Of a stretch of DNA of 45,090 nt, positions 2,232 to 40,161 are shown in pieces; position 1 is the first letter of the stretch, and each line of letters begins with the position of its first letter. A program made the translations under genes and the position numbers. Source of the stretch: Myxococcales bacterium (GTDB taxonomy: Bacteria > Myxococcota_A > Polyangia > Haliangiales > Haliangiaceae). The DNA lies in assembly GCA_016794525.1 (NCBI GenBank), contig JAEUJY010000077.1, positions 1-45,090 of the forward strand, read 5' to 3'. The notes beneath the pieces were generated by a model. It was given only the letters and a program-made list of their open reading frames with translations, had not been told where the DNA came from and did not search any database.

Positions 2232-2262
2232 TCGCACCGTCCTACTGATCGCCACACCACCC

Positions 2263-3042
2263 ATGGCCCCTCGCTCTCCCTTCGCGCGCGTGTTCGCCCG
2301 GGCCGCCGCCGGTCCGGTCAACCTCGGCGTGGCCGGGGCCGCGGTGGTCGGCGCGGTCGCGCTCGCCAGCTGGCCGATCGCGGTGCTGGGCGGCGCGGCC
2401 TACGCGGCGCTGGTCGCGGTCGACATCACCAACAGCGGCTTCCGCCGCAAGGTGCTGTCGGGGCGCGACGCCCGGCCGGCGCTGCCCGATCCCAAGACGC
2501 TCGAGGATCCCGCGCTCAAGAAGGCGGCGACCGCGGTCGCGACCGCCCGCGCCGAGATCGATCGCGTCGCCAAGGGCGTGCCCGATCGCATCCGCGCCAA
2601 CGTCGCCGGATCGCTGGCCGCCACCGACGAGCTGGTCGGGCACGCCGCCGCGTTGATCGTGCGCGGCGACGCGCTGGCCCGCTACCTGGCCAAGGCCAGC
2701 CGCGCCGACGCCGAGCTCGAGGTCGAGCAGCTCGACGCGCTGGTCGCGGCTGCGACCGACGACGCCGCCCGCCAGCAGTACGCGCTGGCCGCCGAGGCCG
2801 GCCGCGCGCGGGTCAAGTCGCTCGACGAGATCGCCAAGGCCCACCAGCGCATCCTGGCCAACCTGACCCGGCTGGTCGCGGCGCTGCGCGGCGTGCCGAC
2901 CAGCCTGGTGTCGCTGCAGGCCCTCGACGATCAGGCGTCGGACTCGCTCACCGGCAACGTCAGCGGCGATCTGGAGCGGATGAACATCGAGCTGCGGGCG
3001 TTCGAGGACACCCTCGCAACCCTGGTGGAGGTACCGACGTGA
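2263..3042 (+). CDS. Membrane protein with two N-terminal TM helices and a long coiled-coil/helical C-terminal region (hypothetical)
   Basis: Normal amino-acid composition. Hydrophobic stretches VNLGVAGAAVVGAVALASWPIAVLGGAAYAALVAV are followed by a charged helical domain. The stop TGA 3040..3042 overlaps the GTG start of the next gene (GTGA), implying translational coupling. Confidence 0.6.
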   Translation: MAPRSPFARVFARAAAGPVNLGVAGAAVVGAVALASWPIAVLGGAAYAALVAVDITNSGFRRKVLSGRDARPALPDPKTLEDPALKKAATAVATARAEIDRVAKGVPDRIRANVAGSLAATDELVGHAAALIVRGDALARYLAKASRADAELEVEQLDALVAAATDDAARQQYALAAEAGRARVKSLDEIAKAHQRILANLTRLVAALRGVPTSLVSLQALDDQASDSLTGNVSGDLERMNIELRAFEDTLATLVEVPT

Positions 3043-4247
3043 AGCAGAAGGTCGCGATCATCGGAGCGTTCGTCGCGTTCGCCGTGGTGCTGATCCTCGT
3101 GGTCGGCGGCGGCGGCAAGAAGAAGGGTGGTGACAAGCCGGCGCCAGGACCGCCGCCGGCCCCCGCCGGCAGCGGCACGTCGTCCGCCGGCGGCAAGGTC
3201 ATGATCGACTTCCTGTACTCCAGCGAGAAGAAGGACTGGATCGACGCGGCGATCGTCGAGTTCGAGAAGGCCAACCCCGACGTCGACGTGGTCGCGGCCA
3301 GCAAGGGCTCGCTCGACGCCGCGTCCGGGATCCTCGACGGCAGCCTCAAGCCGGTGCTGTGGAGCCCGGCCGACTCGCTGATCGTCAACCTGCTCGCCAC
3401 CGACTGGCAGACCAAGTACGGCAAGCGGCCGTTCCCCGCCGACGGCGAGGCCGGGCCGCAGCAGCTGTTGCTGTCGCCGCTGGTGTTCGCGGTGTGGGAA
3501 GACCGCGCCAAGGTGCTGATGGCCGCGTCGGGCGGCGACAGCCTGACGTGGAAGGCGATCCACAAGGCGGTCACGTCGCCCAAGGGCTGGTCGGCGATCG
3601 GCGGCAAGCCGGCCTGGGGCTTCGTCAAGCTCGGCCACACCGACCCCAACAAGTCCAACTCGGGCCTGCAGGCGCTCTTGCTGATGACGCTCGAGTACTA
3701 CACCAAGACCAGCGGCCTCACCGTCGACGAGCTGTTCGACGAGAAGTACCAGACCTGGGTCAAGGAGATCGAGAAGGGCGTGCCGACCTTCGAGGCGTCG
3801 ACCGGCACGTTCATGACCGACATGGTCCGGTTCGGCCCGTCGAAGTACGACATCGCGGTGGTCTACGAGAGCCTCGCGATCTCGCAGCTCGAGAACGCGC
3901 AGGGGCGCTGGGGCAACCTGCGCATCTACTACCCGCCGGTGACGCTGTGGAGCGATCACCCGGTGGTGATGCTCGGCGGCGACTGGGTCACGCCGGCGCA
4001 GGCCAAGGCCGCCGAGCGGCTGATCGCCTACCTGCGCGGCCACGAGGCGCAGAGCATGGCGCTGCGGTTCGGCTTCCGCCCGGCCGACACCTCGCTGCCG
4101 CTCAAGACCAGCGACGGCGCCAACCCGTTCACGCGGCTCGCGCAGTACGGCCTGGCGCTCGAGCTGCCCGAGGCGGCGACCGCGCCCGACGGCGCCGTGG
4201 TGCGCAACCTCCTGATGATGTGGTCGCGCGTCGCGCGGCCGCAGTAG
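3039..4247 (+). CDS. Membrane-anchored periplasmic solute-binding protein, paralog of the N-terminal domain of CDS 525..2231
   Basis: GTG start, N-terminal TM anchor IIGAFVAFAVVLILVV followed by GGGGKKKGG. Clear paralogy with gene 525..2231 (LYSSEKKDWIDAAIVEFEKANP vs IAYGSEKKAWLEEQIKAWNATGP; KLGHTDPNKSNSGL vs KLGHTHPEYSNSGL). No vWA domain. Confidence 0.8.
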   Translation: MKQKVAIIGAFVAFAVVLILVVGGGGKKKGGDKPAPGPPPAPAGSGTSSAGGKVMIDFLYSSEKKDWIDAAIVEFEKANPDVDVVAASKGSLDAASGILDGSLKPVLWSPADSLIVNLLATDWQTKYGKRPFPADGEAGPQQLLLSPLVFAVWEDRAKVLMAASGGDSLTWKAIHKAVTSPKGWSAIGGKPAWGFVKLGHTDPNKSNSGLQALLLMTLEYYTKTSGLTVDELFDEKYQTWVKEIEKGVPTFEASTGTFMTDMVRFGPSKYDIAVVYESLAISQLENAQGRWGNLRIYYPPVTLWSDHPVVMLGGDWVTPAQAKAAERLIAYLRGHEAQSMALRFGFRPADTSLPLKTSDGANPFTRLAQYGLALELPEAATAPDGAVVRNLLMMWSRVARPQ

Positions 4248-4893: not shown

Positions 4894-6000
4894 ATGCGTC
4901 GCTTCGCCGTCGTCGCTCTCGCCGCGCTCGCGTGCTCGAAGTCCTCGGCCCCGCCGCCGGCGGCGGCCCCGCCGCCGGCCACGCCGCCGACCCCGGTCCC
5001 CGCCGCGCCGGCGAGCTGCCTGCGCGACGTCGGCCAGGTCCAGGCCGCGCGCGGCGCGCCGAGCCAGCCGATGCGGCCGACCCACACCTTCTCGATCGTC
5101 GCGCGCGATCCGGTCACCGGCGATCTCGGCGTCGCGGTGCAGTCGCACTGGTTCGCGGTGGGTGCGCTCGTGACCTGGGCCGAGCCCGGCGTCGGCGCGA
5201 TCGCGACGCAGTCGTTCGCCGAGCCGGCCTACGGGCGCAAGGGCCTCGAGCGGATGCGCGCCGGCGCCAGCGCCCCCGACGCGCTGGCCGCGATCCTGGC
5301 CGAGGACGCCAAGCGCGACGTGCGGCAGGTGGCGTTCGTCGACGGCAAGGGCCAGGTCGCGGCCCACACCGGCGCCGCGAACATCGCGTTCGCCGGGCAC
5401 CACACCGGCGCCGGCTACTCGGTGCAGGCCAACATGATGGCCAACGATCGCGTCGTGCCGGCGATGCAGGCCGCCTACGAGGGCGCCACCGGGGACCTCG
5501 CCGAGCGCCTGCTGGCCACGCTGGCGGCGGCGCAGGCGGCGGGCGGCGACGTCCGCGGCTGCCAGTCGGCGGCCATGCTGATCGTCAAGGGCACGCCCTC
5601 GGCCGAGCCGTCCCACGACACGCTCGTCGACCTGCGCGTCGACGACGCCGCCGATCCGATCGGCGAGCTGGGCCGGCTGCTCAAGCTGCAGCGGGTCTAC
5701 GATCACATGAACGCTGGCGACGCCGCGGTCGAGCGCGGCGACGTCCCCGGCGCCAAGCAGCACTACGGCGCCGCGGCGGCCGCCGCCCCCGACCTGACCG
5801 AGGTCCGCTACTGGAGCGCGGTCGCGCTGGCCTCGGCCGGCGAGCTCGACGCCGCGCTGCCAATGTTCACCAAGATCTTCGCCGAGGACAGCCGGTGGAT
5901 CGAGCTGACCCGCCGCATCCAGCCGGCGGTGGTGCCCGCCACCCCCGAGGGCGACGCGGTGATCCAGAAGATCCTGACCGCCGCGCCGCCGCCGCGCTGA
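4894..6000 (+). CDS. DUF1028 family (Ntn-hydrolase-like) lipoprotein with a C-terminal helical extension
   Basis: Start MRRFAVVALAALACS. The mature part contains THTFSIVARDPVTGDLGVAVQS, matching the TFSI-ARD N-terminal nucleophile signature I associate with DUF1028. Divergent from the collagen-like gene with a 46-bp gap. Confidence 0.7.
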   Translation: MRRFAVVALAALACSKSSAPPPAAAPPPATPPTPVPAAPASCLRDVGQVQAARGAPSQPMRPTHTFSIVARDPVTGDLGVAVQSHWFAVGALVTWAEPGVGAIATQSFAEPAYGRKGLERMRAGASAPDALAAILAEDAKRDVRQVAFVDGKGQVAAHTGAANIAFAGHHTGAGYSVQANMMANDRVVPAMQAAYEGATGDLAERLLATLAAAQAAGGDVRGCQSAAMLIVKGTPSAEPSHDTLVDLRVDDAADPIGELGRLLKLQRVYDHMNAGDAAVERGDVPGAKQHYGAAAAAAPDLTEVRYWSAVALASAGELDAALPMFTKIFAEDSRWIELTRRIQPAVVPATPEGDAVIQKILTAAPPPR

Positions 6001-6030
6001 TCACGCCGGCGGGGTGATACGCTCACGGCG

Positions 6031-6621
6031 ATGGATCAGGATCGCGAGCTGCTCGAGCGGTGGCGCGCAGGCGACCAGGCCGCCGGCCGCGATCTGTTCG
6101 CGCGCTACTTCGATCCGCTGTTCCGGTTCTTCGCCAACAAGTGCAACGAGCCCGACGAGCTGGTCCAGGCGACGTTCTTCGCGCTGGTGAAGGCCCGCGA
6201 TCAGTTCGCCGGCCGCTCGAGCTTCCGCACCTACCTGTTCACGATCGCGCGCAACGAGCTGTACCGCTGGCTGCGCACGTTCAAGCGCGAGCGCGGCTTC
6301 GACCCCGAGCTGTCGTCGATCGCCGAGGTCGCGACCACCGCCGGCTCGCGGCTGGCCCGCAACGAGGAGCACCGCCGGCTGTGCGCCGCGCTGCGCACGC
6401 TGCCGGTCGAGTCGCAGACCCTGCTCGAGCTGCACTACTGGGAGGGCCTCGACGCCACCGCGCTGGCCGAGGTCTTCGACGCCCAGGTCGCCACCATCCG
6501 CCAGCGCCTCTCGCGCGCCCGCCTCGCCCTCAAGGACGCCCTGGCCGCCAGCGCCGGCGCCCCGCTGCCCCTGGCCACGGTCGAGGACATGGACACCTGG
6601 GCGAAGTCGCTGGCGGGATAG
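6031..6621 (+). CDS. ECF (sigma-70 family group IV) RNA polymerase sigma factor
   Basis: Region 2-like FFALVKARDQFAGRSSFRTYLFTIARNELYRWLR and region 4-like LPVESQTLLELHYWEGLDATALAEVFDAQVATIRQRLSRARLAL. No anti-sigma gene follows it. Confidence 0.85.
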   Translation: MDQDRELLERWRAGDQAAGRDLFARYFDPLFRFFANKCNEPDELVQATFFALVKARDQFAGRSSFRTYLFTIARNELYRWLRTFKRERGFDPELSSIAEVATTAGSRLARNEEHRRLCAALRTLPVESQTLLELHYWEGLDATALAEVFDAQVATIRQRLSRARLALKDALAASAGAPLPLATVEDMDTWAKSLAG

Positions 6622-6643
6622 GGCGCCCGGTGGGCGGGCCACT

Positions 6644-6655
6644 TTTTTCGGTCAC
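6644..6655 (+). promoter_or_regulatory. Conserved motif TTTTTCGGTCAC lying 28 nt upstream of the start codon of lipoprotein paralog A
   Basis: The same 12-mer occurs at 7800..7811 and 8948..8959, each with an identical 28-nt spacing to the ATG of paralogs B and C. A -10-like CTTCAT/CTGTAT/GTGTAT follows at a fixed offset. Confidence 0.45.
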
Positions 6656-6683
6656 AACGCCGACCGACCTTCATCCATTGGGC

Positions 6684-7742
6684 ATGAAGCGAACCGTTGT
6701 GGCACTCCCGCTCGCCCTGGCTCTGGCCGCGTGTGTCGATAGCCCTGGGGTCGGGCAGGACGAGAGCGCGGTCGTAAACGGCGATGGCGAAGCCTGTCCC
6801 AAGCTGGGCTGCAGCTCGAACTCGGCGTACCTGGGACCGACCGAGTTCCACGAGCTGGAGGAGACCGGGACTTACGCGAACGCCGAGGGCCTGTACCTCA
6901 AGGGCTTGATCAAGAACGGCGTGACCTGGCGTCCCGACGTCACCGGCACGGTATTGATCGGCTATCGATGGGTGCTGGTCGGCGGGATGCTGACCCGTCA
7001 GACGCTCAGCGGGGCGAACCTGGTCAACGCAGAGCTGGTGGTCAAGAACGCGGCCGGCACCCTCGAGTACCGGATCCGCATCACCAACGCGTCGCAGAAT
7101 CAGCAGTTCTGGCAGGCGCCGATCACCAGCGTGAACACCTACGAGCTCAAGTGGCGGCAGGTGGTGCCGACCTCGACCGACTTCGTCCCGGTGTGCAAGA
7201 ACCCGCCGAACCCGGAGACCGAGGACGGCCCCATCCAGAACACGATCGAGTCGATCCTGTTCACGGGCGATCGCTACGACACCGACACGCTGACGGTCAC
7301 CGCGTCGACGCCGGCCGAGGCGACGACCTGGTTCAACATCGGCTGCGCTGGGACGGTGCTCGCGAAGCTCGCGCTCAACCGGCACACCGACGCGACCAAG
7401 TCGGCCCAGGTCACCACCACTCGCGCCCAGCGCCAGGCGATGCTGAAGATGTACACGTCGGACGTGTGTGGCACGGGCGACGCGCTCACGGTCAGCGGCA
7501 CGCCGCTGCGCTGGTGGAGCGCCACCGGCCTCACCAGCAAGGTCATCCCGACGACCTCCAAGGAGGCGCTGTGGACCCAAAACGGCGCCCTCTGCCTCGA
7601 CACGCATCGGCTCGACGGCACCGCGGACGACATGACCAAGCAGATCGAGGACGCCTGCAAGCGAGCCAACCGGCCGGTCCCGCCACCCTGCGTCGATGTC
7701 TCGAGCCCCTGGGACTTCCGGACCGAGAGCCAGGCTCAATGA
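6684..7742 (+). CDS. Secreted lipoprotein, paralog A of a tandem triplicated Cys-rich family
   Basis: Start MKRTVVALPLALALAAC. Blocks GDGEACPKLGCSSNSAYLGPTEFHELEETGTY, VCKNPPN, FNIGCAGTVLAKLALNRHT, YTSDVC, GALCLDTHRL and ANRPVPPPC are shared with paralogs B and C. Confidence 0.8.
   Translation: MKRTVVALPLALALAACVDSPGVGQDESAVVNGDGEACPKLGCSSNSAYLGPTEFHELEETGTYANAEGLYLKGLIKNGVTWRPDVTGTVLIGYRWVLVGGMLTRQTLSGANLVNAELVVKNAAGTLEYRIRITNASQNQQFWQAPITSVNTYELKWRQVVPTSTDFVPVCKNPPNPETEDGPIQNTIESILFTGDRYDTDTLTVTASTPAEATTWFNIGCAGTVLAKLALNRHTDATKSAQVTTTRAQRQAMLKMYTSDVCGTGDALTVSGTPLRWWSATGLTSKVIPTTSKEALWTQNGALCLDTHRLDGTADDMTKQIEDACKRANRPVPPPCVDVSSPWDFRTESQAQ
7259..7560. repeat. Roughly 300-bp direct repeat, about 88-90% nt identity, between paralog A (about 7259..7560) and paralog B (about 8404..8690)
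   Basis: The DNA aligns directly across the GDRYDTDTLTVTASTPAEATTWFNIGCAGTVLAKLALNRHTDATKSAQVTTTR region. This region is identical at the protein level in A and B but diverged in C. Confidence 0.6.
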
Positions 7743-7799
7743 GCTAACGATCTCAGGCCGTTACGTCGCCGGGTCGCCCAGATGGGGTGACCCGGCGCG

Positions 7800-7811
7800 T
7801 TTTTCGGTCAC
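7800..7811 (+). promoter_or_regulatory. Second copy of TTTTTCGGTCAC, 28 nt upstream of the ATG of paralog B
   Basis: Direct sequence comparison. It is flanked upstream by GGTGACC, which forms an inverted repeat with GGTCAC. Confidence 0.45.
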
Positions 7812-7839
7812 GGCGCGCGTCTTCCTGTATCTACGGGGC

Positions 7840-8889
7840 ATGACGCGACACATCATGGCGCTGGCGGCGGCGCTGGCGGCGGGCTGAACTGGCGAACTGG
7901 CGACCGGAAGCGGCGAGAGCCTGGTCATCAACGGTGATGGCGAGGCCTGCCCGAAGCTCGGCTGCAGCTCCAACTCGGCGTACCTGGGCCCGACCGAGTT
8001 CCACGAGCTCGAGGAGACCGGCACGTACCCCAACGCCGAAGGCCTGTACCTCAAGGGCCTGGTCAAGAACGGCTTGACCTATCGCCCCAACGTCACGGGG
8101 ACGGAGTTGACCGCCTCGCGCTGGGCGTTGGTCGGTGGCTTCTGGATCTACCAGACACTCAGCGGGGCGAACCTGGTCAACTCCGAGCTGGTGGTCAAGA
8201 ACGCCACCGGCTCGCTCGAGTACCGCATCCGCATCGCGAACGCGTCGACGATCCAGAAGTTCTGGCAGGCCCCGATCACCACGGTGAACACCTACGAGCT
8301 CCAGTGGCGCCTGGCCACCTCCACCTACTACACCCCGGTGTGCAAGAACCCGCCGAACCGCCTGGATGACACCGGCAACTGGAACAACATCCTCGAGGCG
8401 ATCCTCTTCACCGGCGATCGCTACGACACCGACACCCTGACAGTCACCGCGTCGACGCCGGCGGAGGCGACGACCTGGTTCAACATCGGCTGCGCCGGGA
8501 CGGTCCTGGCGAAGCTCGCCCTCAACCGGCACACCGACGCGACGAAGTCGGCGCAGGTCACCACCACGCGGGACCAGCGGCAGGCGATGCTGAAGATGTA
8601 CACGTCGGACGTGTGCAACAGCGGCGACGCGTTGACCGTGACCGGCACGCCGTTGCGCTGGTGGAGCGCCACCGGCCTCACCAGCAAGGCGATCGCGGTC
8701 TACTCCAACGAGGCGCGGTGGACCGCCGATGGCGCGCTGTGTCTGGACACGCACCGGCTCGATGGGACCCCGGATGACAGGACCGCGCAGATCGCGGACG
8801 CCTGCCAGCGCGCCAACCGACCGGTGCCCCCGCCCTGTGCCGACGTCACGACCAGCTGGGACTTCCGCACCGAGAGCCAGGCGCACTAA
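7840..8889 (+). pseudogene. Lipoprotein paralog B with an in-frame TGA (7885..7887) exactly at the lipobox Cys codon
   Basis: A single reading frame gives MTRHIMALAAALAAG, then TGA, then TGELATGSGESLVINGDGEACPKLGCSSNS and the rest through 8889. Paralog C has Cys at the same position (LAAVGC). Downstream the protein is about 90% identical to A. Confidence 0.6.
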
Positions 8890-8947
8890 CGACACGTTTT
8901 CAGATGGTTGGACGCGGGGGCACCGGAAAAGGGTGACCCCGGTGTGC

Positions 8948-8959
8948 TTTTTCGGTCAC
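8948..8959 (+). promoter_or_regulatory. Third copy of TTTTTCGGTCAC, 28 nt upstream of the ATG of paralog C
   Basis: Direct sequence comparison. It is preceded by GGGTGACCCCGG, the same arrangement as upstream of B. Confidence 0.45.
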
Positions 8960-8987
8960 AGGGGACCGCCGCGTGTATCAACCCGGC

Positions 8988-10070
8988 ATGACCCGACACA
9001 TCCTGGCACTCGCGACGGCGCTGGCGGCGGTGGGCTGTACGGACGACCTGGTGACCGGAAGCGACGAGAGCCCGGTCATCAATGGAGATGGCGAGGCCTG
9101 CCCCAAGCTCGGGTGCAGCTCGAACTCGGCGTACCTGGGCCCGACCGAGTTCCACGAGCTCGAGGAGACCGGCACCTACGCCAACGCCGAGGGCTTCCGG
9201 ATCACCAGCTTCACCAAGACGGTGGGCGGCGTGACCACGACCTACCGCCCCGACGTCACCGGGACGACGCTGGTGGGCAAGCGGTACAGCACCTTGATCC
9301 ACGGCTGGTACACCGCGCTCAGCGGCCCCGACCTGGTCGGCGCGGTGTTCAACGTCGACCGCACCGTCCGCGGTGTCGTCACGGCGAGGTACCAGATCGG
9401 GATCACCGCGGCGAGCACCGCGCAGGAGTACTGGCAGCCGCCGGCCGGCCTGCTGAACACCTACGAGCTGCAGTGGCGCATGATCTACCCGAGCGCCACC
9501 CACCTCGTGCCGGTCTGCAACAACCCACCCAACCGTCTCGATGGCGAGGGGACGTGGTGGCGCAAGACCACCGAGGCGGTACTGTTCACGGGCGATCGCT
9601 ACGACACCGAGTCGCTGACCGTGACCGCCGGCGATCCAGCGTCGTCGGGTGACTGGTTCAACATCGGCTGCTCGGGCACCGTGCTGGCCAAGCTCGCGCT
9701 CAACCGCCACACCTTCGCCACCCAGTCGTCCACGGCGCCGACCACGATCGCGCAACGCCAGGCGATGCTCAAGATGTACGCCTCGGACGTGTGTAACACC
9801 GGCGACGCGCTGACCGTGGTCGGCACGCCGCTGCGCTGGAACAGCACCACCGGCCTGGCCAGCCCCCCGATCGCGGTGAACAGCTACGAGGCCCGGTGGA
9901 CTGCCAGCGGGGCGCTCTGCCTCGACACCCACCGCCTGAACGGCACCCCCGACGACATGGACGCGCAGATCGCCGCCGCGTGCGCCGCCGCGGGCAAGGC
10001 GGTGCCGCCGCCGTGCGCGGGCGCGTCGACGAGCTACTACCTGCGCACCACCAGCCCCGCGCTGCCCTGA
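8988..10070 (+). CDS. Secreted lipoprotein, paralog C of the tandem family (more diverged)
   Basis: Start MTRHILALATALAAVGC; a GTG at 8973 is an alternative start. All family Cys blocks are retained. Convergent with the kinase gene, whose stop is 7 bp away. Confidence 0.8.
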   Translation: MTRHILALATALAAVGCTDDLVTGSDESPVINGDGEACPKLGCSSNSAYLGPTEFHELEETGTYANAEGFRITSFTKTVGGVTTTYRPDVTGTTLVGKRYSTLIHGWYTALSGPDLVGAVFNVDRTVRGVVTARYQIGITAASTAQEYWQPPAGLLNTYELQWRMIYPSATHLVPVCNNPPNRLDGEGTWWRKTTEAVLFTGDRYDTESLTVTAGDPASSGDWFNIGCSGTVLAKLALNRHTFATQSSTAPTTIAQRQAMLKMYASDVCNTGDALTVVGTPLRWNSTTGLASPPIAVNSYEARWTASGALCLDTHRLNGTPDDMDAQIAAACAAAGKAVPPPCAGASTSYYLRTTSPALP

Positions 10071-10077
10071 CCCGGTG

Positions 10078-12606
<2,529 letters not shown>

Positions 12607-12638
12607 GGCGCGCGGGGGTTCCGATAGTATCCCGGGCC

Positions 12639-14120
12639 GTGGACGAACCCGAGGTCAACTCCGTCGAAGCCGTGCCCAGTCCGATCGAGTGGGTGGGGCT
12701 GGCGCTGGGCGGCGCGCCGTTCGCGGTCAGCCATTCGGTGACCCGCATCAGCACGAGCAACGGCGCGGTGTCGGTGTACTACCGCGACTGGGTGGCGCTC
12801 GGCTGTGGCGTCGCGGCGGCGGTGATCGGAGTGCACGCGTTGATCCGGCTGCGCTCGACGGCGCCGGCGCGGCGGACGCTGCGCGTGCTGGTGGCGCTGG
12901 CGCTGCTGGTGGCGGGCGTCGTGCAGGTGCTGCGCGGCGTCGGGACCATCGACGGTCCGAAGGCGGAGGCGCCGGCGATCACGACCGGCCCCGCGACCCC
13001 GCCGCCCGCGGCGGTCGACCCGGCGGTGGCGTGCGACGGCGGCGACAGCGAGGCGTGCAACCGCGCCGGCATGGCGGCGATCGCCGCCGAGCAGTGGACG
13101 ATCGCGCGCCAGCGCTTCGAGACCGGCTGCGGGCGCAAACACGGCGAGAGCTGCAAGAACCTCGGCGTCATGTACGACCACGGCGACGGCGTCGAGCGCA
13201 ACCAGGTCAAGGCGGTCGGCTACTACGGCCAGGCCTGCGACGCCGGCAACGCGGTCGGCTGCTTCAACCTCGGCATGGCCCGCTACCAGGGCGCCGGCGT
13301 CGATCGCGACGTGCCCGGCGCGGCCGGCATGTTCAAGCGCGCGTGCGAGGCCGACAGCGCGGCGGCGTGCAACCAGCTGGCGATCATGCTGGGCGACGGC
13401 GTCGGCGTGCGCGAGGACGACGCGGCGGCGTTCGCGCTGTTCACCAAGGCGTGCGACGCCAAGCTGGCGGTCGCGTGCCGCAACGCCGGGCTCAAGCTCG
13501 ACGACGGCGACGGCGTGGCCAAGGATCCGGCCAAGGCGGTGGCGCGGTTCGTCGAGGCGTGCGACGGCGGCGACGGCGCCGGCTGCTCCGACGCCGGCGC
13601 GCGCTACCAGGCCGGCCGCGGCGTGACCGCCGATCCCGCGCAGGCCCGCACGTACTACGAGCGCGCGTGCCGCCTGAACTACGGCGACGGCTGCAACCGG
13701 CTGGGCCGCCTCGCCGAGGACGGCGTCGGCGAGCCCAAGGATCTCGCCAAGGCCGCCGCGCTGTACGAGCAGGGCTGCGCGCTGGGCGCCGGCTACGGCT
13801 GCTCGAACCTGGCGTTCCTCAAGGGCGGCATCACCAAGCAGCTGCCGCTGTACCAGCGCGCGTGCGAGCTGGGCGCCGCCGGCGTCTGCGTCGACCTCGG
13901 CATGGAGCTGTACACCGGCAAGCACCTGAAGAAGGACGTCGCGGCGGCGCTGCCGCTGTTCGAGCGCGGCTGCGCGCTCGGCGACGAGGTCGGGTGCCGC
14001 AACGCCGGCATCCAGTACTTCCGCGGCGAGGGCACCAAGGCCGATCGCGTGAAGTCGCACGACCTGCTGGTGCGGGCGTGTCAGCTCGGCGACGCCGCGT
14101 CGTGCAAGGAGCTCGAGTAG
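12639..14120 (+). CDS. Sel1-like repeat (SLR) protein with N-terminal TM helices
   Basis: About ten tandem units of roughly 36 aa, of the form C..G....C..LG..Y..G.GV..D...A...Y..AC (for example CKNLGVMYDHGDGVERNQVKAVGYYGQAC). This is the typical Sel1/HcpA-type repeat pattern. Confidence 0.8.
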   Translation: MDEPEVNSVEAVPSPIEWVGLALGGAPFAVSHSVTRISTSNGAVSVYYRDWVALGCGVAAAVIGVHALIRLRSTAPARRTLRVLVALALLVAGVVQVLRGVGTIDGPKAEAPAITTGPATPPPAAVDPAVACDGGDSEACNRAGMAAIAAEQWTIARQRFETGCGRKHGESCKNLGVMYDHGDGVERNQVKAVGYYGQACDAGNAVGCFNLGMARYQGAGVDRDVPGAAGMFKRACEADSAAACNQLAIMLGDGVGVREDDAAAFALFTKACDAKLAVACRNAGLKLDDGDGVAKDPAKAVARFVEACDGGDGAGCSDAGARYQAGRGVTADPAQARTYYERACRLNYGDGCNRLGRLAEDGVGEPKDLAKAAALYEQGCALGAGYGCSNLAFLKGGITKQLPLYQRACELGAAGVCVDLGMELYTGKHLKKDVAAALPLFERGCALGDEVGCRNAGIQYFRGEGTKADRVKSHDLLVRACQLGDAASCKELE

Positions 14121-14124
14121 CCCG

Positions 14125-15498
14125 TCACTTCGGGGTCAGCACCAGCCCGAGCTTGACGTCGACGTCGGTCGGGTCGCCGTCGCCGTCGATGACCGGCGTG
14201 AACTGCCACTTGGCCATCACGCCCTCGATGCACGACGCCAGGGTGTCGTCCACGCCGGCGGCGTTGCCGTCGGTGAGCGCGCCGCGATCGGTGACGGTGA
14301 AGGTCAGCGAGACCTTGCCGGCCAGCGTGCCGTCGCTCACCAGCGACTTCTTGTAGCAGCGCTGCAGGCTGGGCATGTAGGTCGTCGAGATCTTCCGGAT
14401 GATGCCGTCCACCGACGGATCGCCGGGCGGGCGCGGGGTGACCACCGGCTTGATGCGGCCGGGCGGGCCGGGCTCGGGGCCCTTGACGATCGGCGTGACG
14501 GGGCGGTTGGTGTCGGGATCGATCACCGGGTTCTGGCTGGTGCCGGGGCGGTAGGCGTCGTCGGGGCGCACGCGGCCGGTCTGATCGCCGATGCTGGCGG
14601 TCTGGTCGTTGCGCTTGATCTCGTCGAGCTGCTGCGCGAGGTCGGTGCCCGGCTTCTTGGCCGACAGATCGCCGACCGTGCGGCCGCTGTCGCCGTCGGG
14701 GGCGAACAGCAGATCGGCCATGCGGGTCGGATCGCCGGGCTCGGTCGTCGCGGGCGTCGTCGTCGGCGCCGCCGGGCGGCTGGTGCTCGGCGTCGGCTTG
14801 TGGCTCGGCGCGGGCGCGGTCGGCTCGGGCTTGCTCGGCGCCGGCTGGGTGCCGGGCTCGGGCTCGGGCGCCGGATCGGTGTCGAAGATCGGATCGCTGG
14901 CGTCGATGAGCGCGATCGTGTCGTCGGTGTAGGTCTCGGTCGCGCGGTGCGCCATCGTCGGCTTGCCGGGCGGATCGTTGAGGTTGGCGGCGATCATCAC
15001 GCCGAGGTGCGCCACCAGCGACGCGGCGGCGAACGCGGCGACGCGGCCGTCGATGCGATCGGCCAGCGTGCCCTTGAGCGCGCGCGGCAACGTGGGCGCC
15101 GGCGCGGGCGCGGGCAGGCGCACGCCCTGGAACAGCACGCGCACCTCGCCGACGTCGACGCGGCCGTGGGCGGTCAGCGGCAGCACGACCGTGGTCGCGC
15201 CCGCGGCCACCTTGCCGTGGGCGTCGCACTCGGCGCGGGTCCACACCGCGTCGCCCACCGCGATCCGCACGTCCATGCCCGCGGCCAGCCGCAGGCGGAT
15301 GCCGGCGGCCGTGATCGTCAACAGCTCCCAGTTGCGCGGCAAGGTCGGCAGCGGCAGCTGGATGCTGGCGCGGGCCGACTGGCCGATCGAGAAGGGCCGC
15401 TGGCCGCGCACGATCTGCTCGGCGACCACGGTCCCCGACAGCACGATGCCGAGGCGAAGAGCGGGAGGATTCGCAGGCTTGGCAGGAGTCGCGGACAT
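14125..15498 (-). CDS. AgmX/PglI-like membrane protein: N-terminal cytoplasmic domain, one TM helix, Pro/Thr-rich linker, C-terminal TonB-C-like domain
   Basis: TM helix AAFAAASLVAHLGVMIAA. Long linker PAPEPEPGTQPAPSKPEPTAPAPSHKPTPSTS. The C-terminal roughly 90 aa (IIRKISTTYMPSLQRCYKK...WQFTPV) is typical of TonB/AgmX-PglI C-terminal domains. Family assignment is from memory. Confidence 0.6.
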   Translation of the reverse strand: MSATPAKPANPPALRLGIVLSGTVVAEQIVRGQRPFSIGQSARASIQLPLPTLPRNWELLTITAAGIRLRLAAGMDVRIAVGDAVWTRAECDAHGKVAAGATTVVLPLTAHGRVDVGEVRVLFQGVRLPAPAPAPTLPRALKGTLADRIDGRVAAFAAASLVAHLGVMIAANLNDPPGKPTMAHRATETYTDDTIALIDASDPIFDTDPAPEPEPGTQPAPSKPEPTAPAPSHKPTPSTSRPAAPTTTPATTEPGDPTRMADLLFAPDGDSGRTVGDLSAKKPGTDLAQQLDEIKRNDQTASIGDQTGRVRPDDAYRPGTSQNPVIDPDTNRPVTPIVKGPEPGPPGRIKPVVTPRPPGDPSVDGIIRKISTTYMPSLQRCYKKSLVSDGTLAGKVSLTFTVTDRGALTDGNAAGVDDTLASCIEGVMAKWQFTPVIDGDGDPTDVDVKLGLVLTPK

Positions 15499-30936: not shown

Positions 30937-32805
30937 TCAATCCACGATCAGCCAGCGCGTCGCGTGCGCCGGCAGGTCGAGCGCGAGCGTGCCATCGACG
31001 GTCGCCACCGGCGCGTCGGTGAGCGCGTCGCGCAGCGCGGCGCCGACCGGGACCGCGACGATCGCGCGGACGGCGCGGGCGGTGCGGTTGGCGACGAACA
31101 GCGCGCGGACGCGGCCGTCGTGGGCGGCGAAGCTCGCGGTGGCGACGCCGGCGGGGCGCGTCGCGATCCACTCGTCGCGCGGGGCCAGCGCGGCCAGGTC
31201 GGCGGCGAGGCCGGCCAGATCGTCGAGCGAGCCGGGGCGCATGCGGCCGGCGCGCCGCGGCGGCGCGAGGTCGTCGCCCAGCGGCTGGTCGAGCTCGTCG
31301 AGCGTCGGCGCGTCGGGGCCGAACACGACGACGCGGCGATCGGCGGCCAGCCGGTGCAGCGCGCGCCACAGCCCGCGATCGATCCGGCGCAGCGTCGGCG
31401 CGACGAACGCGCGGGCCGGGATCGCCGCGAGGTCGGCGTCCTCGGCGACCACCGCCGCCGCGACCTGGCCCAGCTCGAGCGCGTCGGCGATGGCGTCGGC
31501 CCAGCGGCGGGCCCGCGGCGCGTCGGCGTCGGCGCACAGCTCGGCGGCGCCCGCCGGGCCGAGGCCGAGCAGCTCGAGCGCGACCGGCGGCACCGGCGCC
31601 ACCAGCGACGACGCGCGGGCCACCCGGGCGTCGGCACGGGCCGCGATCAGCGCGACGTCGACGACGCGGCGCAGGCCGGGCAGATCGTGGCGCGCGATCG
31701 CCGCGAGCAGCGCGCCGACCCGGCGGCCCTCGGCGGTGACCGCGCCGGCGGCGTCGACCAGCCCGCCGATCCAGCGATCGCGCGCGACGCCGGCGATCCA
31801 GGTGGCGCCGCGGGCGCCCGCGGCCAGCGCGGCCAGCGCGATCGCGGCGCGATCGTCGTCGGTGGTCGGCGCGAACAGCGGCGAGTGCCCGGCCGGCAGC
31901 CGCACCAGGTGCGGGGCCCGCGCCGCCTGCACGCGCGCGGCGATCGCCGTGGTCGGCTGGGTGCCGCTGGCCAGGTCGACCTGCCGCGGCCACGGCGTCG
32001 CGTCGTCGTCGTCGCGCGGCGCCAGCGTCGGCGCCACGCCCACCCGGGCCACGCCCGCCAGGCCGGCCTCGTCGAGGATCGCCGACCACCGCGCCGCGGC
32101 GCGGGCGGCGGCCTGGCCGTTCCACCGCACCCAGGCGGCGCAGGTCGCGGCCTCGTCGGCGGCGAAGCGTCGCGGCGGCTCGACGTCGCGGTGGGCGCGC
32201 CACGCGGCGATCGCGTCGGGGTGGTAGTCGAGATCGTAGGCGCCGCTGCGCGCCAGGTACGGCCGCCCGGCGTCGAGGCCGATCGCCACCACCGGCCCGT
32301 CGGGCGCGAGGCGCGGCACGGCGATCGCCGCGACCCACTGGTAGAACGCGGCCAGCGCGTCGGTGAACGCGGCCGACGCCAGCGACGGCAGCGGGAACGC
32401 CCGCGGCACCAGCGGCGCGAACGCCGGCCCGCCGTGCGCCGCGCGCGCCCACATCGCCTCGTCGCGCACGACGTGATCGGGCAGCCCGGCGAACGTCTCC
32501 TCGAGCGCCGCCAGCGGCCCGAGCTCGAGGCACACCGCCAGCCCGGCGGCCGCCGCCGCGTCAATCGCCGCGCCCAGGTCGCGGTCGCCGCTGCCGTCGA
32601 AGCCGCCGCCGCGGCGCGCGTGCACGCCCCAGGTGACCGGCAGCTCGACCAGCGTCAGGCCCAGCCCGCGCAGCGCGGCCAGCGCGCGCGGCCACGCGGC
32701 CCGCGGCGTGCGCGCGTACGCGAACGTGGCGCTCCACCACGGCAGCGCGCGGTCGCCGACGATCAGCCCGCGGTCGTCGAGGTGGGTGCGGCGATGTTCT
32801 TCCAC
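30937..32805 (-). CDS. Glycoside hydrolase family 35/42-like (beta-galactosidase-like) protein, possibly catalytically degenerate
   Basis: After a junk N-terminal extension the ORF reads LGLTLVELPVTWGVHARRGGGFDGSGDRDLGAAIDAAAAAGLAVCL, resembling the GH35 GLN.V..YV.WN.HEP..G.FDF block with HEP replaced by HAR. The GTG start at 32803..32805 overlaps the Nudix gene by 43 bp; an alternative CTG start overlaps the Nudix TGA. Confidence 0.45.
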   Translation of the reverse strand: MEEHRRTHLDDRGLIVGDRALPWWSATFAYARTPRAAWPRALAALRGLGLTLVELPVTWGVHARRGGGFDGSGDRDLGAAIDAAAAAGLAVCLELGPLAALEETFAGLPDHVVRDEAMWARAAHGGPAFAPLVPRAFPLPSLASAAFTDALAAFYQWVAAIAVPRLAPDGPVVAIGLDAGRPYLARSGAYDLDYHPDAIAAWRAHRDVEPPRRFAADEAATCAAWVRWNGQAAARAAARWSAILDEAGLAGVARVGVAPTLAPRDDDDATPWPRQVDLASGTQPTTAIAARVQAARAPHLVRLPAGHSPLFAPTTDDDRAAIALAALAAGARGATWIAGVARDRWIGGLVDAAGAVTAEGRRVGALLAAIARHDLPGLRRVVDVALIAARADARVARASSLVAPVPPVALELLGLGPAGAAELCADADAPRARRWADAIADALELGQVAAAVVAEDADLAAIPARAFVAPTLRRIDRGLWRALHRLAADRRVVVFGPDAPTLDELDQPLGDDLAPPRRAGRMRPGSLDDLAGLAADLAALAPRDEWIATRPAGVATASFAAHDGRVRALFVANRTARAVRAIVAVPVGAALRDALTDAPVATVDGTLALDLPAHATRWLIVD

Positions 32806-33578
32806 GTGCGATCCTCGAGGACGAAGCGGCTGGGCCCGACCGCCAGCGGGTGATCGGCCGGCATCGGCGCGCTGTCGCCGGTGCCGTCGGTGGCGTAGCC
32901 CGGATCCCAGGGCAGGAGCAGCGCGAAGCCGCCGCCGGGCAGCGGCGCCATCCGCGGCATGATCGGGTGCGGGTGCGCGGCGGCGGCGGCGGCCAGCGCG
33001 AACGCGGCGTCGATCGACGTCGCGGCGGCGAGGTCCGACAGGATGCGCACCTGCGGCGGCGGCAGCGCCAGCGCCTGCGCGCGGGCCAGCGCCTCGGCCG
33101 GCGTCGCCCACGCCTCGTCGACGGTCTCCTGCGCGTCGAAGCTGGGCCGCTGGCCCTCGGGCAGCGCCGCCAGGTAGAACCGCGCCGAGAACCGCTTGCC
33201 CTCGGCCGACGGCGTGATCCAGTGCGCGTAGTAGGCGAGCCGCTCGGGCGCCAGCGTCAGGCCGGCCTCGGCCAGGAGCGCCGCCATCGGCGCGCCGGCC
33301 AGCAGCCGCGTGCGCAGCGCCGCCACCGTCGCGTGATCGACCGGCGCGCTGGCCAGCAGCACGCCCGCCTCCTCGAACAGCTCGCGCGCCGCGGTGACGC
33401 GCAGGTCGCCGCCGTCCTCGGGATCGGCCGCGCCGCCGGGGAAGACGAACGCGCCACCCATGAACGACGCGTTCTTGCGGCGCCGCAGCAGGAACACCTC
33501 GAACCCGGCCGCCGCCGGGCGCAGCAGGATCACGGTCGCGGCGTCGCGCGGCGTCGGGTACACGCCTGGCTGTATCAC
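32763..33578 (-). CDS. NUDIX hydrolase
   Basis: Nudix box GGAFVFPGGAADPEDGGDLRVTAARELFEEAGV (GX5EX7REUXEEXGU). The GTG start at 33576..33578 is inferred. The upstream part of the track ORF is antisense shadow of the TolB-like gene. Confidence 0.65.
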   Translation of the reverse strand: MIQPGVYPTPRDAATVILLRPAAAGFEVFLLRRRKNASFMGGAFVFPGGAADPEDGGDLRVTAARELFEEAGVLLASAPVDHATVAALRTRLLAGAPMAALLAEAGLTLAPERLAYYAHWITPSAEGKRFSARFYLAALPEGQRPSFDAQETVDEAWATPAEALARAQALALPPPQVRILSDLAAATSIDAAFALAAAAAAHPHPIMPRMAPLPGGGFALLLPWDPGYATDGTGDSAPMPADHPLAVGPSRFVLEDRTWKNIAAPTSTTAG

Positions 33579-33629
33579 TGCGCGCGCCGGTCGCGCAACG
33601 CGCGGCTCGCGGTCGTGGTACGTCGAGCC

Positions 33630-34721
33630 ATGGCCGCTCGGTTGCCGCTGACCGCGATCGCGACCGCGACCGCGCTCGCGCTGCTCGCGGGCGGGTGCAA
33701 GGATCGCAAGCGCACCCGCGGCGCGGTGCGGGTGGTGGTCGACGCCCCCGGCGCGCCGATCGACGCCGGCGTCCCCGATCTGGGCTTCGTCCGTGGCGAC
33801 GTCGTGATCGATCAGCTGCGCGAGGGCCGCCACCAGCCGGCGCGGCTCGACCCCGCCACCCGAAGCTGGGTGCTCGTCGGTGACGGCGTCGGCGACCTGT
33901 ACGCGACCGGACACCGCCTCGGCGACGGTCTGCTGGCGATCGCCACCGCCGGCGCCCACGAGGACGATCACCAGGAGCAGCTGGCGATCGTGACCGGCGC
34001 CCGGGTGGCGCGGTTCGGCCCCACCGCGAAGCAGGTGCGCAACCCCAGCGCGGCCGGCGGCGCGGTGGTGTTCGCCAGCGACCTGGCCAGCTACAGCGAC
34101 CTGTACGCGATCACGCCGACCGCGCCGCCGCGGCGCCTCACCGACGACGCGGCCGGCAACTTCGAGCCGGCGCTCGCCCCCGACGGCGCGCGGGTGGCGT
34201 TCGCGTCGTCGCGCGACGGCAACGCCGAGCTGTACGTGCAGCCGGTGGCCGGCGGCGCCGCGCGGCGCCTCACCGACGCCAGCCGCGACGACTGGAACCC
34301 GGCGTGGTCGCCCGACGGCGCCCAGCTGGCGTTCCTGTCGGATCGCACCGGCAGCGATCGCGTGCACCTGATCGCGGTCGCGGGCGGCGAGGCGCGCCGG
34401 CTGTCGAGCGAGCCCGGCACCACCGCGATGGAGGAGCAGCCGGCGTGGTCGCCCGACGGGCGCGCGGTGGCGTTCGTGCGCATGGGCGGCGGCCGCGCGG
34501 CGATCACGATCGTCGAGGTCGCCACCGGCGCGACCCGCACGCTGACGCCCGACGGCGACGCCGACCGCGGCTTCGCGTGGAGCCCCGACGGCCAGGCGAT
34601 GATCGTCGCGCGGCGCGCGGCGGGCGGCGCCGCGACCGTCGTGCTGGTGCGCGTCGCCGACGGCGCGGTGATCGACCGCTGGCCCGGCGACCCCGCCTAC
34701 CTGCGCTGGATCGCGCCGTAG
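33630..34721 (+). CDS. TolB-like beta-propeller (PD40/WD40-like repeat) lipoprotein
   Basis: Start MAARLPLTAIATATALALLAGGC. Repeated units such as PALAPDGARVAFASSRDGNAELYV, PAWSPDGAQLAFLSDRTG, PAWSPDGRAVAFVRM and FAWSPDGQ. Confidence 0.8.
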   Translation: MAARLPLTAIATATALALLAGGCKDRKRTRGAVRVVVDAPGAPIDAGVPDLGFVRGDVVIDQLREGRHQPARLDPATRSWVLVGDGVGDLYATGHRLGDGLLAIATAGAHEDDHQEQLAIVTGARVARFGPTAKQVRNPSAAGGAVVFASDLASYSDLYAITPTAPPRRLTDDAAGNFEPALAPDGARVAFASSRDGNAELYVQPVAGGAARRLTDASRDDWNPAWSPDGAQLAFLSDRTGSDRVHLIAVAGGEARRLSSEPGTTAMEEQPAWSPDGRAVAFVRMGGGRAAITIVEVATGATRTLTPDGDADRGFAWSPDGQAMIVARRAAGGAATVVLVRVADGAVIDRWPGDPAYLRWIAP

Positions 34722-34737
34722 CGCGCCGGCGCCGCGG

Positions 34738-35145
34738 TCACGGCAGGTCGGCGAGCCCGGGGCTGGCGAACCGCGTGCCGGCCGGGAACGTCAGCCCGAA
34801 CTCGCGCGCCAGCGCGGCCAGCAGCGCGTCGTGGCTGGGCAGCGTCTCGACCACCGTCGAGCCGTCGTGGGCGCGGCGGGTGAGCGTGCGATCGACCAGC
34901 GTCAGCCGGCCGGTGGTCGTCGCGCGGGCGACGATCAGCCGATCGCGGAAGTGCGACCGCGGGTGCGCGCTGGTGTACCAGTTGCCGACGATCCGATCGA
35001 TCTCGGGCATCTCCTCGAGCGTGAACTCGTTGACGTCGGCCCACTCGTCGCCCAGCCGCACCTGGTGGAACAGCCGCGCGTCGGGGCTGCGGCGGGTGAA
35101 GCCGTCCCACGCGCCCTCGGCGATGATCCGCCGCGGCTTCATCAA
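34738..35145 (-). pseudogene. 5'-truncated arylamine N-acetyltransferase (NAT) remnant, C-terminal domain only
   Basis: FHQVRLGDEWADVNEFTLEEMPEIDRIVGNWYTSAHPRSHFRDRLIVARAT is the NAT C-terminal region. The N-terminal domain carrying the Cys-His-Asp triad is absent. The upstream frame is R-rich shadow. Confidence 0.55.
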
Positions 35146-35590
35146 GCGCGTCGTCGCGCGCGGCGGCGATCGCGTCGCGGTGCGCGGCGGGGTGGTCTAC
35201 CGCAACGGCCAGCCGCTGGCGTACGGCCCGCCGCACCCATGCGCGCTCGAGGACCGCGACGAAGGCACCGCGGCGCGGTCGTGGCGGCACGAGACCGCGA
35301 CCTGCCGCGAGGAGACGATCGGTCGGCACCGCCACCAGGTCGTCGTCGCGGCGACGCCTGACGGCGAGCGCGACTTCCCGGCCGAGGCGGCGCCGGGCGA
35401 CGACGAGCGCGGCCGCCTGGTGCCGCCGGGCCACGTCTTCGTGCTCGGCGACAACCGCCCCAACAGCAACGACTCGCGCTTCTGGGGGCCGGTGCCGGTG
35501 GGCAACGTCCGGGGCACCGCGCTCTACGTCTGGCTGTCCCGCGGCCCCGATGGCATCCGCTGGCAACGGATCGGCCACGTGATCGAGTAG
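35123..35590 (+). pseudogene. 5'-truncated signal peptidase I (LepB, S26) remnant
   Basis: GFIKRVVARGGDRV...GHVFVLGDNRPNSNDSRFWGPVPVGNVRGTALYVWLS matches boxes D and E of signal peptidase I. The TM anchor and the catalytic Ser box are missing. Its 5' end overlaps the 5' end of the NAT remnant head-to-head. Confidence 0.55.
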
Positions 35591-35742
35591 CCGCGATCAC
35601 AGCTGCCGAGGATCGGACGTCAGCGCGACAGATCCGCCCGGGTGGCTGCGCGATCCTCCACGGCCGATGCGCGGCGAAGCCGGTTCTGCGGCGATCGCGC
35701 GCTGGCGCGTCGGTTGCTACCGCCCGCCGGCAGGAGGAGACG

Positions 35743-37164
<1,422 letters not shown>

Positions 37165-37206
37165 CGTCAGCGGGAATGCGCCGCGCCCTCGCCGCGTTGC
37201 CGCTCG

Positions 37207-38058
37207 ATGAGGCTCGCCATGGTGGTCGTCGGCGTCCTGCTCGGCACGGCGGCGCCGGCTGCCGCCGATCTGGTCGCCTGGGTCGATGACGTCGCCGAGC
37301 CGGCGATCGACGCGCCGGTCGCCGGTGGCCACCTCGCCGTGACCCAGCGCGCGATGCCGTACGGCTCGGGCTACCAGTACGTCCAGCTCACGGCCGCCTT
37401 CGACCCGGCGCACGGGCCACGGCGGACGACGCTGCTGTTCGAGGGCCCGACGATGTGCGCCAGCACGATCCGCGTCGGTCGTGGCGTCGAGGTCGCGGTG
37501 TGCACCAACCGCTTCGGCGACACCCGCGAGGTGACGCGCTGGCGGCTGGATCGCACGACCGGCCGCCTGGTCGCGGGCGCGCCGCGCTGGCGCAGCCCCT
37601 ACGCCGAGGGCGCCCAGGCGGTGCTGCGCGCGCTGTACGCCGGCCGCGAACGCACGGCCGAGGCGGCGCTCGAGCAGCTCGGCGACAGCCCCGATGGCCA
37701 GGTCTCGGTCGGCTGGTGGTGGGCCGCGCACCGTCTGCTGGCAGCGTGGTCGACGATCGCGCGCCTGCCGCCTGCCGCGGCGCGCGCCGCGCTGACGCCG
37801 CACGTCGCGCGCTTGCTCGCGCCCGACGACGACGGCAGCCCCAACCTGGTCGCGGCCCTGGCCGCCGACCTGCGCGCGGTCCCGCGCTGCAGCTACACCG
37901 ACCTCGCCGGCCGCGCGCGACCGTTTCGCGTCGTCGGGGTCCGCGCCCGCCTGGCGCCGGTGGTGGCGCGTGTCGAGCGCTTGCTGGCCGCCGGCGACGC
38001 GACGCAGCGCGCCCAGGCTGTCGCGTTGCGCCAGGCTCGTGTGCGACCGCCGCCGTGA
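37207..38058 (+). CDS. Secreted hypothetical protein
   Basis: Signal peptide [20 protein letters not shown]. Reasonable composition (W, Y, C present). It sits co-directionally downstream of the vWA lipoprotein. No family recognised. Confidence 0.5.
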
Positions 38059-38083
38059 CGCACGGCGCGCGGCGGCGGCCCCG

Positions 38084-40114
<2,031 letters not shown>

Positions 40115-40161
40115 GGTCGCAGTCTAGCGCCGAAGCTGACAGCGGCCTGTCAGGTATCGCG

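Follow-up and report, generated by a model that had tools for sequence, protein, structure and literature searches.

The window analysed here, the whole 45,090-nt stretch of this Myxococcales contig (G+C content 74%), raises the question of how two genes, one for an arylamine N-acetyltransferase (NAT) and one for a type I signal peptidase (SPase I), came to lie head to head with their 5' parts missing. The two open reading frames involved, listed as 34738..35145 on the minus strand and 35123..35590 on the plus strand, had been read in a first-pass annotation as the scar of a deletion. The results presented below make it very probable that a chromosomal deletion of about 2.4 kb, arising by illegitimate recombination at the level of microhomology, left these frames behind as two dead gene remnants.

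The minus-strand frame matches the Pfam family of NAT (PF00797; E=1.6e-17) over profile positions 141-235 of 240 only and does not span the full-length fold, whereas the orthologue in the relative L087 spans positions 1-235 of the same profile. The homologous part, the NAT 3' remnant, occupies 34738..35139 (minus strand, stop codon at 34738-34740) and encodes approximately 134 C-terminal residues, corresponding to residues ~150-283 of the 283-aa orthologue. The motif NWYTSAHPRSHF, which had been quoted for this remnant, is present in the window. At the protein level, identity of the remnant to the C-terminal NAT region is 93% for L084, 91% for L085, 88% for L086 and L087, and 67% for L088. The alignment of the L087 protein with NAT1 of Mesorhizobium loti (PDB 2BSZ; E=1e-53) extends from end to end and identifies the Cys-His-Asp triad of the L087 protein as C71 (within GGYCFEHN), H110 and D125. 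In the window the triad is absent; the remnant begins at the equivalent of residue ~150. Thus, set beside bacterial NATs such as those of M. loti and Mycobacterium smegmatis (PDB 1GX3), the remnant matches the family profile in its C-terminal part but has lost the triad together with all of the N-terminal and central regions, only ~150-283 being left. Judged by these matches, it clearly derives from a bacterial NAT gene and, because the triad and the N-terminal and central parts are gone, could not be an active NAT. The description of this frame as the C-terminal part of a NAT and nothing else is accordingly borne out.

The plus-strand frame starts with an ATG at 35123 and ends at 35590; the SPase I (S26A) 3' remnant within it extends over 35138..35590 and encodes about 150 C-terminal residues (~145-294 of the orthologue). 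Its matches are likewise partial, covering positions 73-167 of 168 in PF10502 (Peptidase_S26, Pfam; E=1.5e-23) and 70-160 of 162 in the NCBIfam signal peptidase I model TIGR02227. Protein identity is 79% to L087 and L001 and 54-55% to L088 and L003. Compared with the type I signal peptidases of known structure (LepB/SPase I, MEROPS S26A; from E. coli, PDB 1B12 and 1KN9), the remnant scores well against the profiles and keeps both the Lys box that holds the general base and the GDNRxxSxDSR box (FIKRVVARGGD and GDNRPNSNDSRFWG, respectively), but the N-terminal membrane segments and the Ser box with the nucleophile are gone. The motif GDNRPNSNDSRFWGPVP, also quoted for this remnant, is found in the window as well. 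In L087, the equivalent Lys and GDNRxxSxDSR boxes align with those of the Escherichia coli enzyme; against the E. coli SPase I structures, GSMQPTL of L087 lies opposite the Ser box (GSMMPTL in E. coli) and FVKRVVA opposite the Lys box. A Ser box (SM.PTL) is seen in L003, too (TSMAPTF), and is absent from the window. The membrane anchor is also absent: the remnant begins at FIKRVVA, and the hydrophobic N-terminal ~100 residues of the L087 SPase correspond to deleted DNA. Of the two residues S108 and K147, the former falls within the deleted part and the latter is retained. The earlier reading of this frame as an SPase I devoid of transmembrane anchor and Ser box therefore stands.

The plus-strand frame sits within a longer, 428-aa stop-free frame, 34304-35590, which runs antisense through the 3' end of the neighbouring PD40 gene and the NAT stump and continues in frame with the SPase stump. 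This frame is open because the third-codon positions coincide, and it could be mistaken by a gene caller for a long 'signal peptidase'.

Where, then, are the missing halves, and where exactly does the break lie? A tblastn search of the 45-kb window, with queries from seven relatives of NAT and seven longer relatives of SPase, gave only scattered matches at chance level (E 0.2-1) besides the remnants. The N-terminal halves of NAT and SPase are found neither in the upstream frames, in agreement with the first-pass annotation, nor elsewhere in the window, and no frameshift-corrected reading restores them; a local inversion or a frameshift as the source of the truncation was rejected on this ground. 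In these searches the NAT homology ends at 35139 and the SPase homology begins at 35138. At the DNA level, blastn homology on the left (NAT) side has its end point at 35138 in each of the five relatives L084-L088, and that on the right (SPase) side begins at 35130-35138 in four relatives. A base-by-base comparison with the two parental sequences, left and right, as represented in L084-L088, L001 and L003, combined with the blastn end points, places the junction at 35137..35139. The dinucleotide CT (35137-35138) comprises the only bases exactly common to both parental sequences at this point, within an imperfect 9-nt similarity at 35130-35138 in which 7 of 9 bases match. The 23-bp overlap of the two remnants that had been described does not hold up: it reflects chance start codons, and the homologies themselves abut at a single breakpoint.

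Comparison of the segment 33001-38200 with L084-L088, L001 and L003 (blastn) shows that both outer flanks are collinear and co-oriented around this breakpoint. Specifically, window positions 33007-35138 align with 8169-10395 of L087o and positions 35130-37163 with 12809-14866, such that the window skips positions 10396-12817, that is, 2,422 bp. Absent from the window are NAT codons 1 to ~149, a regulator gene, a VOC gene, an ArsC-family gene, the divergent intergenic region between the latter and SPase, and SPase codons 1 to ~144. Long direct repeats flanking the lost segment were not found in the intact L087 locus, and repeats around the junction in the window are limited to high-GC background. 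A scan of the vicinity of the joint for promoter and terminator consensus sequences gave no sites and no sigma-70-like promoter, although such a scan is uninformative at 74% GC.

The structure of the intact locus comes from relatives, and the decisive search was a scan of metagenome contigs with the NAT stump, which gave L084-L088. With the SPase stump as the query, the genome contig collection yielded best matches of only 30-40% identity (MAGs of Myxococcales/Kofleriaceae, then Gammaproteobacteria), none of them syntenic. The closest NAT protein match apart from these loci, in L002 (85%), was rejected as evidence on the junction, the 634-bp contig being a three-part chimera: within 1-634, only ~108-360 match the NAT stump of the window (97%), and the flanks are unrelated, the left one with a lower G+C content. 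Short NAT and SPase proteins in the databases were similarly rejected as candidates for conserved short ORFs, their shortness being due to contig ends, a run of N or frameshifts.

In window orientation, the ancestral gene order derived from tblastn and ORF reading of L087 is GH-like (−), NUDIX (−), PD40 (+), NAT (−), regulator (−), VOC (+), ArsC-family (−), SPase I (+), lipoprotein (+) and uvrB (−), where the lipoprotein gene between SPase and uvrB is not present in every relative. Between the NAT gene of L087 (283 aa, minus strand) and its SPase I gene lie the regulator (217 aa, minus strand, with HTH_11 and WYL domains), the VOC/glyoxalase-family gene (~140 aa, plus strand) and the ArsC-family gene (102 aa, minus strand; NF041106, score 96 bits, cut-off 85). 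The SPase I itself (plus strand) comprises 260-294 aa, 294 when read from an upstream ATG, and the 260-aa reading already covers positions 6-167 of 168 in PF10502. Both NAT and full SPase are intact at the syntenic position in L087 and L088, and in the latter, an outgroup, the five-gene core NAT-regulator-VOC-ArsC-SPase is contiguous. The NAT frame reads past the breakpoint of the window in all five loci L084-L088 and is full length where the contig allows (as in L087); its N-terminal half is covered by tblastn in L084-L086 and L088. L084 and L085 have four genes of this core (NAT, regulator, VOC and ArsC-family) but lack SPase. In L001, the SPase sequence consists of the N-terminal membrane region, a run of N (~1226-1237) in the Ser-box region, and then the rest of the protein.

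These loci separate two parts of the original proposal. That a deletion took the 5' ends of both genes is supported by the intact syntenic relatives and the collinear flanks. In contrast, the idea that the two genes were divergent neighbours with a shared promoter region does not survive: NAT and SPase are indeed divergent in the intact relatives, but they are 1.6 kb apart with three genes between them, and the immediate divergent partner of SPase is the ArsC-family gene rather than NAT. The NAT gene most likely is co-transcribed with the regulator, to judge from its start, which in L087 lies 2 nt past the regulator's stop on the same strand.

On the left of the junction, the PD40/TolB-like beta-propeller gene (33630..34721, plus strand; Pfam PD40, with the NCBIfam TolB-like match below the cut-off) is convergent with the NAT remnant and syntenic in all relatives. 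On the right, directly 3' of the SPase remnant, a putative 473-aa lipoprotein with weak VWA/MIDAS similarity (35743..37164, plus strand) is syntenic in L087, L084 and L001, followed by the anchor of this flank, uvrB (38084..40123, minus strand; Pfam UvrB domains, tblastn identity 89-97%), which is syntenic in L084, L085, L087, L088 and L003. The surroundings vary in several other ways. Between the lipoprotein gene and uvrB, the window alone carries a 283-aa ORF (37207-38058, plus strand) of coding-type composition, with no match in Pfam or NCBIfam; in L087 and L084, the stops of the lipoprotein gene and uvrB are ~6 bp apart. L084 contains an extra ~3.6 kb between PD40 and NUDIX (~5733-9324), with one very large ORF for a secreted protein, which is absent from the window and L087. 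Relative to L087, L085 has ~0.87 kb extra between the VOC and ArsC-family genes (L085o ~2128-3004) and L084 ~100 bp extra there, and in L001 a fragment of an IS4-like transposase (11-508) adjoins the ArsC-family gene where relatives have VOC.

Taken together, these observations are best explained by a single deletion. Under this explanation, one break would have occurred within NAT at about codon 150 and the other within the SPase gene at about codon 145; the intervening DNA, with three whole genes and two 5' halves, would have been lost in one event of ~2.4 kb, and the ends would have been joined over no more than a few common bases. With collinear flanks, and with NAT and SPase divergent from the outset, a plain deletion yields exactly this head-to-head joint. 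Both remnants are dead, the NAT stump without its triad, the SPase stump without anchor and Ser, and each without its own promoter and start codon, and they are presumably silent or meaningless rather than expressed. In its abutting truncated genes, intact syntenic relatives, collinear flanks and few-base homology at the joint, the locus resembles other deletion-derived pseudogene remnants produced by short-homology illegitimate recombination. The event is ordinary bacterial gene loss.

A mild peculiarity compared with ordinary deletion pseudogenes is that in related strains the same accessory SPase gene was hit by another deletion, placed independently of the first. This 888-bp deletion, common to L084 and L085, begins in the ArsC/SPase intergenic region and ends 42 nt short of the SPase stop, with the junction at ~2175-2215 in L084 (L084o 12400-12500) and ~285-335 in L085 (L085o 3319-3418); L085 also lacks the lipoprotein gene. 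In L003, a 1-nt insertion at ~115-130 (GGACC, compared to GGCC in the near-identical L088) shifts the SPase frame between the Ser and Lys boxes, and this SPase is either a pseudogene or the product of a sequencing error. Separate events have thus led to at least two losses of this SPase copy. Because L084 and L085 lost the same gene by a separate deletion, the copy at this locus is accessory and dispensable in its lineage. SPase I is generally essential. Given this essentiality and the close relatives that lack the present copy, the organism presumably possesses another, housekeeping SPase I elsewhere. A literature search on SPase I paralogues in myxobacteria gave nothing usable.

With respect to the age of the event, substitutions polarised by outgroups number 3 synonymous and 1 non-synonymous on the window branch of the NAT C-terminal part, against 3 and 4, respectively, on the L084 branch; for the SPase C-terminal part, the numbers are 10.5 and 4.5 in the window and 7 and 7 in L087. 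In these lineage-specific counts and the dN/dS derived from them, all of which are small, the remnants show no excess of amino acid change. As the remnants do not bear the marks of prolonged neutral decay, the deletion probably is recent. The absence of stop codons says little at 74% GC and GC3 near 1.

Several other explanations of the joint have to be weighed. If the short ORFs were functional, stand-alone C-terminal domains of NAT and SPase maintained by selection, one would expect what is in part observed: both frames are open, with strong coding-type composition (GC3 of 0.93-1.0 in the two remnants), the window branch has few non-synonymous changes relative to synonymous ones, and an ATG is available, by chance, right at the joint (35140-35142, minus strand). 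However, a recent deletion would give the same low dN/dS, all catalytic residues of NAT and the Ser of SPase are missing, and the native promoters and starts are deleted, with no sigma-70-like promoter found in their place (weak evidence at this GC content). Among the relatives, moreover, no equally short conserved genes occur at the locus, where the syntenic genes are full length; we consider this explanation hardly conceivable. Extremely improbable, too, is an inversion or translocation by which the N-terminal halves and the three genes would survive at another place in the genome. If two co-oriented genes were the end points of an inversion, one of its junctions would likewise show two 5'-truncated genes head to head, but NAT and SPase are divergent already in the intact relatives, and an inversion would flip one flank, whereas both are collinear; furthermore, the missing halves are nowhere in the window. 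The collinearity of both flanks is the reason why we favor a deletion over an inversion. An artefact of assembly or amplification, in which the contig joins positions that are 2.4 kb apart in the real chromosome, is very unlikely, even though the junction is unique to the window: the protein, genome-contig and metagenome-contig collections searched contain no identical or nearly identical sequence, the best protein relatives of the stumps reach 79% (SPase) and 85-93% (NAT), and two neighbouring proteins of the window have no exact match either. The metagenome contigs of this group are not free of errors, as seen in the chimeric L002, the run of N in L001 and the 1-nt indel in L003. Nevertheless, the breakpoints share no repeat of k-mer length in the intact sequence, only 2 nt exactly or 9 nt imperfectly, and hence there is no basis for a de Bruijn or overlap collapse. 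Unlike in typical chimeras, the order and orientation of the flanks are preserved, and a natural deletion of the same gene, with one common junction, is found in two relatives. We infer that the joint is biological rather than a product of assembly.

The remaining alternative concerns the origin of the right-hand side. Over 30937-40123, compared with L084 and L087, the synonymous divergence of the window from its closest relative is a mosaic that varies by gene between 0.07 and 0.24; relative to L084, dS is 0.10 in the GH-like gene, 0.15 in NUDIX, 0.20 in PD40, 0.08 in the NAT C-terminal part, 0.24 in the lipoprotein gene and 0.07 in the 3' part of uvrB. Because it changes gene by gene, this pattern indicates frequent homologous recombination among strains at the locus. 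It could also suggest that a divergent segment, with the SPase 3' half, the lipoprotein gene and the 283-aa gene, was imported by homology-facilitated illegitimate recombination and replaced resident DNA, one end being anchored by homologous recombination in or near uvrB and the other joined illegitimately within NAT. The outcome, a scar with two dead stumps, would be the same as in a simple deletion. Consistent with an import, divergence from L084 jumps across the joint, from NAT to the lipoprotein gene, and falls back within uvrB; on the right-hand side, the alleles of L084 and L087 are about equally distant from that of the window; the 283-aa gene is confined to the window; and similarity at the joint amounts to just 2-9 nt, as is typical of illegitimate ends. 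However, PD40, to the left of the joint, is comparably divergent from L084 without any structural change, and the mosaic is not confined to the right-hand side. The divergence is accounted for by ordinary allelic recombination and so needs no link to the joint. The imported lipoprotein allele could, in addition, be that of the window or that of L084, and no donor sequence was found. On balance, an import is unlikely, and we retain the deletion by illegitimate recombination as the explanation of the joint.

A broader reading would make the stretch from uvrB to PD40 a hot spot of structural change in this uncultured lineage of high GC content, from which an accessory SPase I has been removed repeatedly by selection rather than by neutral drift, and in which the joint itself could stem from a homology-facilitated illegitimate import. 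The enzyme may be costly without partner genes, for instance, and the at least two independently placed deletions, possibly together with a frameshift, may belong to such a pattern. We regard this reading as quite unlikely.

The value of the finding lies mainly in annotation, and it opens no new question on the NAT or SPase families. Both ORFs should be flagged as pseudogene remnants rather than as 'signal peptidase I' or 'N-acetyltransferase', and the 428-aa frame should not be annotated as a gene. Beyond this, the locus represents a clean example, resolved to the base, of a short-homology deletion in a very GC-rich genome.
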